64,000 nt of DNA from a virus (IMGVR_UViG_3300006738_000004:1-64000); one strand, 5' to 3'. Numbered from the stretch's first letter, positions 15,601-57,708 are shown. The notes: generated from the sequence alone by a model not told the origin. Numbers and translations: made by a program.

Positions 15601-16173
15601 ATGGCTGTTACCGGTAAGGCTGTTTCGATGGCCATCATTGCAGCGGGGCCTAAGCTCGTAGGCCCTACTTGGCTCAAGGTGGCAGATGCCGTTGGGGTTT
15701 CGGTAGCCCAGTGGCTCAAAGCAGCAGGGGTACGAACTACTGGAGCTACCGCAGGCGTTGCAGGAGGAGGCACCGTAACCGGCAAGGTTGGCGTGGCTCC
15801 GATGGCGTTGCCTGGGACGATCCAAGCGGCTGGCTTGGTTGGAATCACCGGAGGCCAAATCGCCACTGCTGTTGGTATGGGGTTCTCGTCTGCTTTCAAC
15901 GCCAGCAACCAGTTCACGGGCGTCTCTACTGGGGTGGGGATTGGGGTGGAGGTCGTTACCAAGGTCACGGCGGCTAATGCTGGCTCTCTCATCACGATTC
16001 TCACGGGCAACCTCGCCGCCAAGAAGATCACTGGCTTGAACGCGGCCAAACTTGCCGCTGGGATCGGCAACGGTATTGCCGCTATTGCTTTGACTGGAGT
16101 GGGTGCAGGCGTAGCGGCGGGGTCTCCCTCCCCTGTGCCTGCGACGGGTACAAGCAAGTCCGTGGTGGTGTGA
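15601..16173 (+). CDS. Gly/Ala-rich small virion protein (190 aa), candidate spike tip
   Basis: Immediately follows the spike gene; GGAG SD; very high small-residue content with internal pseudo-repeats. Confidence 0.45.
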   Translation: MAVTGKAVSMAIIAAGPKLVGPTWLKVADAVGVSVAQWLKAAGVRTTGATAGVAGGGTVTGKVGVAPMALPGTIQAAGLVGITGGQIATAVGMGFSSAFNASNQFTGVSTGVGIGVEVVTKVTAANAGSLITILTGNLAAKKITGLNAAKLAAGIGNGIAAIALTGVGAGVAAGSPSPVPATGTSKSVVV

Positions 16174-56067: not shown

Positions 56068-56113
56068 GGAATCTGCTTTATAGGCAGGTTCAAAGGCGAA
56101 CATGAACTACCGT

Positions 56114-56128
56114 CGGTTTTTCCCTTAT
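56114..56128 (+). promoter_or_regulatory. Class I promoter motif CGGT-N7-TTAT (a degenerate second copy GGGA-N7-TTAT at 56067-56081)
   Basis: CGGT TTTTCCC TTAT upstream of the membrane protein gene. Confidence 0.55.
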
Positions 56129-56170
56129 CGGAGGCGTCGGTGAGCACAAAACTTTTCCAGGAGGAAACAT

Positions 56171-56674
56171 ATGCGACACTTTCTAACCTTGATCGTGCTG
56201 GTACTCGGTCTGACGGTTCCAACCGCTGCTTTTGCGGAAGAACCTGCTGCGGCTGAAGCAACGGAAGAGGCGGCTCCCGCTTCAGATGAAGCCGCACCTG
56301 CGGGGGACGAAGCTGCGGCAGATGAGGCTGCTGGTGACGAGGAAGTCCCGGACACTCTCGATGATGCCGCTGACGACATCAGCTTGCTCGTGAAGGCAGT
56401 CCAGGACAAGAACTGGTCCCTGGCTCTTGGTTTCTTGCTGATGCTCCTTGTCATGCTTGCCAACAAGTTCGGCCTGAAGGACAAGGTTGGCTCCAAGGCG
56501 GTCCCGTGGGTCGCTATGGGCCTCGCTGTGGCCGCTACCAGTGGTATTGGGCTGGCTAACGGTCTGGCGCTGATGGATGCTGGTATGCAGGGTGTTCTGG
56601 CTGGCGTGGCTGCCATTGGTGGCTGGGAGTTGCTTTTCAAGCACATCCTCCAGAGCAAGCCCGCTGCTGACTGA
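56171..56674 (+). CDS. Membrane protein with N-terminal signal peptide, acidic linker and about 3 TM helices (holin-like C-terminus), 167 aa
   Basis: Strong SD AGGAGG; MRHFLTLIVLVLGLTVPTAAFA signal peptide (A-x-A site); Glu/Asp/Ala linker; hydrophobic helices. Confidence 0.7.
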   Translation: MRHFLTLIVLVLGLTVPTAAFAEEPAAAEATEEAAPASDEAAPAGDEAAADEAAGDEEVPDTLDDAADDISLLVKAVQDKNWSLALGFLLMLLVMLANKFGLKDKVGSKAVPWVAMGLAVAATSGIGLANGLALMDAGMQGVLAGVAAIGGWELLFKHILQSKPAAD

Positions 56675-56696
56675 GTAACCTCAGTCCACAAACTCA

Positions 56697-56728
56697 GACG
56701 CCCCCCGGAGAGATTCTCGGGGGGCGTT
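56697..56728. terminator. Strong GC hairpin, probable (possibly bidirectional) terminator
   Basis: ACGCCCCCCG...CGGGGGGCGT inverted repeat just after the stop codon; weak U-tracts on both sides. Confidence 0.55.
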
Positions 56729-56945
56729 CTGCGCTTACCGCCCCAGGTTTTTGCCGACTGGGGGCTTCGGCCCTAATGTGGTGGGTCCATGGGGACCTCC
56801 AGGAGAGAGGAAGTTTCAGCGGACTCCTTTGGCCTGCCGCTGCGTCAGGGGTGCGACCTGAGCTTCGCGCACCGGAAACCGCCTTGGGTGGGGACACTGG
56901 CGAAGGCCCCTAAATCTAATCCATCGAGCTTCTCTCCTCTTCTTG
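56729..56945. ncRNA. Candidate structured non-coding RNA (strand uncertain)
   Basis: No credible ORF; dense helices and pseudoknot-compatible pairings; bounded by a class II promoter and a terminator-like hairpin. Confidence 0.4.
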
Positions 56946-56950
56946 AACTC

Positions 56951-56981
56951 TCTACGGGAGCCGCTGGGAACGGGAACCCCT
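56951..56981 (-). promoter_or_regulatory. Class II promoter AGGGGTTCC-N16-CGTAGA
   Basis: Exact motif and spacing match to the other two copies. Confidence 0.6.
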
Positions 56982-56986
56982 TCTCT

Positions 56987-57001
56987 CGATGATTTGGCTA
57001 T
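56987..57001 (+). promoter_or_regulatory. Class I promoter motif CGAT-N7-CTAT
   Basis: One mismatch to consensus; upstream of a structural gene. Confidence 0.5.
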
Positions 57002-57069
57002 GAGTCAGGGTGTTCGACACCATGTGCGGAGTGTGCTCGGTAGAGTGCCGGACATGGAGGCAAGGTGAC

Positions 57070-57708
57070 ATGGGTTCAATGATGAAGGACAGGTTCCAAT
57101 CTCCTCGTGGCCGGGTAAGCCTTGGTTTCACCATGGAGCAAGCTGCTGTGATGGCCCTTCCCAAGGGAGAGGTCTTCATTGAGATGGTGGATGGCAAGAC
57201 GGGAGAGGTCCTTTTCAAGGAACATCGCCCCAACGTCATCACCGCTGACGCAGGCATTCAAGCCGCTCGCTACTTCAAGGACCCTTCGGAGCCTGCCAGC
57301 GGGGCCAACATGCTGGCTGTGGGCACCGGAGCTACGGGTGCCCTGTTGTCTCCCGACGCCCCAAGCCCTGACCAACGGGGTTTGAATGCGGAGATTTCCA
57401 GGAAGGCGTGGGCTTCCACTACGTTCAGGAACGCCGATGGTGGCGCGTCAGAGATCCCCACCAACGTGGTGGATTTCACCTGCACCTATGACGAGGCAGA
57501 AGCAGTCGGTCCTCTGAATGAGATGGGCATCCTGTCCACACGCTCGGACAACCCGTTGATCACCTACCCCAACCCGGACATCTACCCGGCTCGGGAACTG
57601 TCACGGGACTTGCGGGACTACGATGTGCTGATCAACTACCTGACTTTCGCGGTGATCTCGAAGCCCAGCACCGCTCGGCTGACCATTACTTGGCGAATCA
57701 CGTTCTAA
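57070..57708 (+). CDS. Baseplate/fibre-attachment protein (tail-collar/P2 gpH N-terminal-like), 212 aa
   Basis: NVIT..G...MLAVGTG...LNAEISRK...EAVGPLNEMGI...FAVISK...LTITWRITF pattern typical of fibre-attachment domains; start ATG 57070 after GGAGG/AGGTG. Confidence 0.6.
   Translation: MGSMMKDRFQSPRGRVSLGFTMEQAAVMALPKGEVFIEMVDGKTGEVLFKEHRPNVITADAGIQAARYFKDPSEPASGANMLAVGTGATGALLSPDAPSPDQRGLNAEISRKAWASTTFRNADGGASEIPTNVVDFTCTYDEAEAVGPLNEMGILSTRSDNPLITYPNPDIYPARELSRDLRDYDVLINYLTFAVISKPSTARLTITWRITF

Follow-up and report, generated by a model that had tools for sequence, protein, structure and literature searches.

The window, by which we mean the whole 64,000-nt stretch of DNA that was analysed, comprises the first 64 kb of the 100,935-bp IMG/VR record G000, to which CheckV assigns a completeness of 22%. 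Relatives of the genes it carries are found on contigs of 150–620 kb, so that the record is a fragment of the genome of an uncultivated jumbo phage, and a 180-kb record from the closest relative of the window phage, G001, was taken for comparison. Towards the end of the window, two late genes follow one another on the plus strand. The product of the upstream gene (56171–56674) is a membrane protein of 167 aa that combines a signal peptide and an acidic linker with transmembrane segments at the C terminus. An earlier note on this DNA had described the gene as holin-like; PHROG holin families match the protein only weakly, at E values of 0.0035 and 0.0064, so that it is no more than weakly holin-like. 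The downstream gene (57070–57708) encodes a 212-aa protein of the phrog_5417 family (PHROG E value 2.7e-19), has 738 homologues at E ≤1e-40 and begins with an ATG at 57070 that is preceded by a GGAGG site. The two genes are syntenic in dozens of relatives, and homologues of the neighbouring gene product include the proteins P0001 (96% identical) and P0003 (76%). Among the related loci, L020 is the same virus as the window (99.7% identity), and L002/L003 show 88% amino-acid identity to it in the neighbouring gene.

The gap between the two genes measures 395 nt in the window (56675–57069), whereas at least 16 relatives that keep both flanking genes space them by 22 nt or less. The genes nearly abut in L004, and in L021 and L025 the gap holds a terminator hairpin followed directly by a class I promoter, the late-type promoter described below, and nothing else. 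Compared with these arrangements, about 250 nt of the window gap are an insertion. The additional sequence occurs only in the window virus (together with L020) and in L002/L003, and in each case it lies between the terminator and the class I promoter. Its interior has diverged unevenly. A core of about 120 nt is conserved, and its flanks within the insertion cannot be aligned to those of L002, from which they differ by indels of 34, 22 and 46 nt. On the terminator side, a lineage-specific spacer (56729–56812, taken on the minus strand), which contains the helices CCCCAG/CTGGGG, GGGC-UUCG-GCCC and GGTCC/GGACC and the purine run AGGAGAGAGG, is replaced in L002/L003 by some 30 unalignable bases, and on the other side L002 has 46 nt extra between its class II promoter and the core. 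A relative with 67% identity, L022, carries a different insert of 170 nt at the same junction (L022:2250–2430), in which two units of about 60 nt stand in tandem and the minus strand carries a diverged class II-like motif; by eye these tandem units gave the impression of being tRNA-like, which neither ARAGORN nor Rfam supports.

The boundary of the insertion on the membrane-protein side is a GC-rich hairpin of about 13 bp with one bulge (56697–56728), which probably terminates the membrane-protein gene and would presumably also stop a unit converging on that gene from the minus strand. This strong GC hairpin, already placed at the end of the unit by the earlier note, is real. L002 has a hairpin at the same position with a different stem sequence, and hairpins also follow the membrane-protein gene in L021, L025, L022, L043 and L047. 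A scan for canonical terminators returned no site in the window, because the U-tract of this hairpin is weak. The U-tract is poor on the minus strand in the window, which counts against a discrete small RNA ending here, and it is better in L002 on both strands. The asymmetry of the U-tracts was considered as a sign of bidirectional termination and set aside, as A- and U-rich flanks are also present in L043 and L047, which have no minus-strand unit. Bidirectional use of the hairpin is presumed in what follows.

Two classes of promoter meet at the opposite end of the insertion, and both of those proposed earlier stand. The late-type class I promoter of the phrog_5417 gene (CGAT-N7-CTAT, 56987–57001) is on the plus strand. 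Its motif, CGRT-N7-CTAT, occurs eight times on the plus strand of the window against 1.34 expected copies, where it precedes structural genes, and dozens of metagenomic relatives, with GC contents of 51–64%, have it in front of the homologous genes. Plus-strand copies of the late-type form CGGT(A)-N7-CTAT lie at window positions 16071, 31772, 39242, 40083, 56987, 58499 and 58735, and the loci L021–L098 have the late-type motif upstream of the homologous membrane-protein and phrog_5417 genes; from its distribution, CGGT(A)-N7-CTAT appears to be a late promoter common to the clade. A class I-like variant, CGGT-N7-TTAT, is also present before the membrane-protein gene (window 56100–56135), where L002 has the canonical CGGT-N7-CTAT. 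The membrane-protein gene is therefore likely to form a late unit by itself, monocistronic and closed by a terminator of its own.

Back to back with the class I promoter of the phrog_5417 gene, a class II promoter (a G-run and GGTTCC-N16-CGTA, 56953–56981) lies on the minus strand and points into the insertion, with a predicted start near 56946. The motif GGTTCC-N16-CGTA is present in three copies in the window against 0.03 expected, a number that none of 100 shuffled sequences reaches, in seven copies across the whole of record G000 and in 39 exact copies in G000 and G001 combined. For 22 of these 39, the next 45 nt contain a Shine–Dalgarno sequence and the beginning of an ORF of 40 aa or more; with the interval widened to 110 nt, the number rises to 27. 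The focal site has every element of the class: the G-run with GGTTCC, the exact 16-nt spacer, CGTA and a short leader. Both halves of the motif are kept in L002, where the 16-nt spacer has diverged, a pattern that counts in favour of the unit being transcribed into a small RNA. In G001, the class II motif clusters in non-structural regions, on both strands; from location, the sole basis for the assignment, class II promoters would be early or middle and class I promoters late. A further class II cassette is situated on the minus strand of the structural block (window 37790–39226) and comprises several small genes, including one for an HNH endonuclease (38544–39092; phrog_5200, E 7e-54). With this example, the minus-strand units resemble mobile insertions in a back-to-back arrangement with class I promoters.

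Downstream of the focal class II promoter, on the minus strand, the leader contains a Shine–Dalgarno-like sequence, GAGGAGAG (56939–56932), and a mini-ORF of two codons, ATG-GAT-TAG (56924–56916), located at the start of the conserved core; the two elements together span 56916–56939. This layout is the same as in the protein-coding class II units. In the alignment, L002 keeps the ATG, a GAGGA 8 nt upstream of it and an ORF of four codons. The focal leader, gagagttcaagaagaggag, closely resembles the leaders of coding class II units, for example the one at G001 +59730. The resemblance can be read in two ways: it counts for a small RNA, and it counts against one since leader, Shine–Dalgarno sequence and ATG resemble what a protein-coding cassette, since lost, would have had at its 5′ end.

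The conserved core itself (56813–56933, minus strand) is 81.5% identical to L002/L003 over 119 nt (E 5.5e-26), with one 2-nt and one 3-nt indel. By comparison, fourfold-degenerate sites in three flanking genes are only 38–46% identical between the window and L002, so that neutral sites are saturated, and the persistence of the core at 81.5% identity under such divergence indicates that it is under purifying selection. The best-conserved flanking gene reaches a nucleotide identity between window and L002 (80%) similar to that of the core. The core is narrowly distributed. Searches for copies beyond the window lineage with three DNA patterns in IMG/VR and one in GTDB recovered L002/L003 and chance matches confined to the pattern; a scan of metagenomes through the neighbouring protein added a core copy only in L020; a covariance model, R1, gave nothing credible (best E 0.09) in 27 records of related jumbo phages, of which five have a completeness of at least 90%; and blastn against the INPHARED phages gave no match. 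The core is thus known from two lineages only, window/L020 and L002/L003; further copies would be expected above all on the contigs that encode P0001 and P0003. A role as the template of a diversity-generating retroelement (DGR), or a paralogous origin, was rejected, since the 100-kb and 180-kb records contain no second copy of the core.

Selection on the core is unlikely to act through a conserved protein. The statement that the region holds no credible protein is upheld, in that no ORF of the 395-nt gap is kept in the related phage and no open frame on either strand is common to both lineages. The 2-nt indel within the core rules out a shared reading frame. Pfam and PHROG hold no family matching the ORFs of the gap, and a six-frame tblastn comparison with the relatives and with both genomes returned nothing that would point to a hidden or relic protein. 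One faintly coding-like candidate is a 67-aa ORF on the plus strand (56789–56992), which would make the element a small protein-coding gene. Each of the three ungapped core segments, when translated in its frame, matches L002 best or nearly best at the amino-acid level, with six synonymous and eight non-synonymous codon changes, and the 3-nt indel leaves it in frame. The 2-nt indel, however, reframes in L002 the first third of the core, which is the most conserved third at the nucleotide level, and the N-terminus and the start codon are absent from L002. The ORF also crosses the promoter of the opposite strand, a terminator precedes it and no plus-strand promoter feeds it, none of 5.8 billion proteins shares three 5-residue words with it, and it matches no Pfam or PHROG family. 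A small protein-coding gene is therefore very unlikely here.

The earlier note had regarded the interval as a highly structured RNA, and every pairing that it listed is present in the window where it was placed. Taken together, however, they amount to no more than chance would give. A structured RNA was taken to be one whose folding energy is clearly below that of dinucleotide shuffles, and neither the gap nor the core shows such an excess: for the gap, the plus strand gives a z-score of +0.13 and the minus strand one of −1.04, and the core, with z-scores from +0.4 to +1.7 on both strands and in both phages, folds worse than its shuffles. The predicted minus-strand transcript (56946–56692), terminator hairpin included, has a z-score of −1.24; its counterpart in L002 reaches −2.25, a value that owes much to the terminator hairpin and to a hairpin specific to L002. 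The consensus fold of the two sequences is likewise indistinguishable from column-shuffled two-sequence alignments (plus strand, z −0.06; minus strand, z −0.69).

What the core does contain is two ordinary hairpins in a stretch conserved mostly in sequence. Hairpin 1 (CAGCGG/CCGCTG with a 14-nt loop, 56817–56842, minus strand) has an invariant stem and three loop substitutions in L002. Hairpin 2 (GGTGCG/CGCACC with a 12-nt loop, 56850–56873, minus strand) reads GGTGTG/CACACC in L002, one pair being changed on both sides, and its loop is 2 nt shorter there and of other sequence. Over the two hairpins, the stems differ at two of 24 nt, and these two changes form one compensatory pair, which counts in favour of a small RNA; the loops accumulate about eight changes and a 2-nt indel in 26 nt. 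RNAalifold adds one further compensatory pair, in a short long-range helix, for a total of two from two lineages only. The conserved pairs are all Watson–Crick and so do not tell the strand.

These comparisons bear directly on the idea, put forward in the earlier note, of a compact tmRNA-like RNA with three tandem pseudoknots, possibly on the plus strand. The pairings do exist in the window sequence, and the z-score of the L002 transcript might be cited in its support, largely a contribution of the terminator and L002-specific hairpins as it is. Nevertheless, only one helix is fully kept in L002 in each of the first two units; the partners that would complete the pseudoknots, AGGAG/CTCCT and TCAGG/CCTGA, retain three of their five pairs, and in the third unit CGCC/GGCG and GGGG/CCCC lose one pair each, so that the second helix of every unit is eroded. 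The long-range helix AGGAGAGA/TCTCTCCT, described as competing with the first unit, retains four of its eight pairs. The helices at 56741–56797 are absent from L002, and the UUCG loop that had been taken as evidence for the plus strand belongs to a hairpin within the part deleted there. Rfam 15 identifies no family at the gathering threshold in the whole window, and in the gaps of the window and L002 at E ≤10 the best scores, 11–19 bits against thresholds of 43–95, are noise; with both thresholds, the gap of L022 and three other loci likewise gave nothing. Neither a tRNA nor a tmRNA is detected by ARAGORN in the window, in L002 or in L020, and at a relaxed threshold of 70% it makes only meaningless calls. 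With no folding excess in gap or core, a consensus fold that equals shuffled alignments and no match to Rfam, tRNA or tmRNA, an RNA built on tandem pseudoknots is highly improbable.

The main rival to a small RNA sets the selection at the level of DNA. The insertion would be the relic of a mobile minus-strand gene cassette whose gene has been lost, the core would serve as a DNA or cis element for the two back-to-back promoters, and any RNA would be a by-product. The focal unit resembles moron and homing-endonuclease cassettes in being inserted between genes that are adjacent in relatives, with its own promoter and oriented against the late genes; unlike such cassettes, it has no gene left and still keeps 120 nt conserved. 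In line with a relic, the class II leader, the Shine–Dalgarno sequence and the ATG are all retained in front of an ORF of merely two codons in the window and four in L002, and other minus-strand class II units of the structural region carry genes, the HNH endonuclease (phrog_5200) among them. Promoter and 5′UTR DNA is, moreover, generally very conserved in the phage pair, exceeding 90% in the intergenic region at 58.4–58.8 kb. Several observations weigh on the other side. An early stop (fifth codon) is common to both lineages, so that any ancestral gene would have been truncated before the lineages split, and with neutral sites saturated since then, a dead remnant should not have stayed 81.5% identical. 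The two lineages also space the core and the class I promoter differently, by 54 nt in one and 120 nt in the other, and this speaks against a DNA site that depends on its position. In hairpin 2, both the compensatory change and the variable loop length are better accounted for by a nucleic-acid hairpin than by a protein operator. A relic with a role in DNA is, in our judgement, unlikely, albeit more of a contender than the coding and pseudoknot readings.

A second alternative concerns the direction in which the unit faces. If transcripts begun at the class II promoter extended into the hairpin or beyond it, they could oppose the late membrane-protein gene, and the unit would be an early or middle cis-antisense regulator that would act through an RNA duplex at the 3′ end or through polymerase collision, by analogy with the OOP RNA of phage lambda and cII. 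The layout is convergent, the hairpin is shared by both units and the weak minus-strand U-tract makes read-through conceivable. Like OOP RNA, the focal unit is predicted to be short, to have its own promoter, to converge on the 3′ end of a neighbour and to end at a hairpin. OOP RNA overlaps the end of the cII coding sequence and acts through RNase III cleavage of the duplex. In the window, unlike in lambda, any overlap would be limited to the terminator hairpin: termination there would confine it to about 30–40 nt of the 3′UTR, outside the coding sequence, and the conserved core is antisense to no known gene. The presumed target is itself only weakly holin-like, and the timing of class II promoters is read from their location only. 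The type I toxin–antitoxin pairs bsrG/SR4 and txpA/RatA of Bacillus offer another parallel, in which a convergent small RNA and the mRNA of a membrane protein share a terminator region. Type I toxins are small peptides, typically of less than 60 aa. The membrane protein of the phage departs from this pattern, with 167 aa and a signal peptide, and relatives that have no RNA unit conserve it as part of their structural block.

A documented precedent comes from a lytic phage. In the Pseudomonas phage PAK_P3, RNA-seq found intergenic small RNAs and early antisense RNAs, the latter over structural genes (PMC4933390), which lends some plausibility to antisense regulation in the window. The RNAs of PAK_P3 have been proposed to act in RNA-based timing of gene expression (PMC4933390). 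The focal unit is comparable in that it is predicted, from sequence, to yield a short ORF-less transcript, intergenic or antisense within a structural region; it differs in having no sequence relationship to the PAK_P3 RNAs and in occupying its own inserted gap, whereas the antisense RNAs of PAK_P3 are mostly inside genes. Taking these points together, antisense control of the membrane-protein gene is possible, and as an explanation of the whole unit it is distinctly improbable.

The reading that we favour, at a confidence somewhat short of even, is a lineage-specific small non-coding RNA of about 250 nt, transcribed from the minus strand and ending at the shared terminator hairpin. The unit would then be a non-coding minus-strand insertion with the membrane-protein gene's terminator on one side and, on the other, the class I promoter that serves the following structural gene. 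The RNA would start near 56946 under the class II promoter at 56953–56981, pass through the leader with its Shine–Dalgarno-like site and two-codon mini-ORF, continue into the 120-nt core with its two simple hairpins and stop at the hairpin at 56697–56728, which also terminates the converging gene, to give the length of about 250 nt. The minus strand is preferred because on the plus strand the core comes after a terminator and before the next promoter, which leaves the minus strand as the one with a feeding promoter; the minus-strand class II promoter announced by the earlier note is real, given the excess of its motif in the window and its 39 copies in the two records. As it is sequence rather than a compact fold that is conserved, such an RNA would be more likely to act by base pairing or protein binding than as a folded scaffold. 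The original suggestion of a structured RNA is therefore retained in part: a non-coding function of the conserved portion is plausible, its conservation being above neutral, and dense structure is not supported. As regards base-pairing targets, blastn-short detected no significant complementarity to the core in the 100-kb and 180-kb records, both from genomes that are less than half complete, and in a duplexfold screen of 551 start regions in both genomes the minus-strand RNA performed no better than the plus-strand control. As matters stand, it is a modest, lineage-restricted small-RNA candidate that falls within a general type already known, rather than a new class of structured RNA.

The same record contains a second ORF-less class II unit, on the plus strand at G000 98600–98975 (L100:800–1175), with its motif at 98732. 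It is about 95% identical over some 330 nt to G001 84.7–85.0 kb, with one 17-nt deletion; the conservation, much better than that of the focal core, extends about 130 nt upstream of the promoter. No Rfam match and no ORF were found in it. A similarity between the focal unit and this one was examined and is not significant (p ~0.09). This second unit is convergent with a minus-strand gene, whose 3′ end it faces; the gene encodes a glutamine synthetase of 376 aa (L100:1174–2304, that is, G000 98973–100103; Pfam Gln-synt_N, E 1.5e-12, and Gln-synt_C, E 3.1e-21) and is a probable auxiliary metabolic gene of the phage. Close by, a 27-nt element, GGGGTTCCAACCCACCTTACGGGGGCG, occurs twice, 48 nt apart, at L100:700–780 (G000 98500–98580), and these repeats are found in a 1.1-kb gene-poor region with two class II promoters.

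The presence of a second, highly conserved ORF-less class II unit suggests that such units may recur in the phage. In its broadest form, which we consider doubtful though worth stating, the proposal would be that this clade of marine jumbo phages carries a small set of conserved, class II-driven RNA genes without ORFs, the focal unit and the one at 98.7–99.0 kb among them, which would run counter to the genes around them, act as early or middle regulators of late and auxiliary genes, here those for the membrane protein and glutamine synthetase, and would constitute a new family of regulatory RNAs with no relative in Rfam. The two promoter grammars, an early/middle-type GGTTCC-N16-CGTA and a late-type CGGTA-N6-CTAT, help to annotate the clade. 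Little has been mapped of the regulatory RNAs of jumbo phages, and next to nothing of those of uncultivated marine members. If it is transcribed, the unit described here would provide a defined promoter, core and genomic setting in which to study RNA-based timing in jumbo phages.
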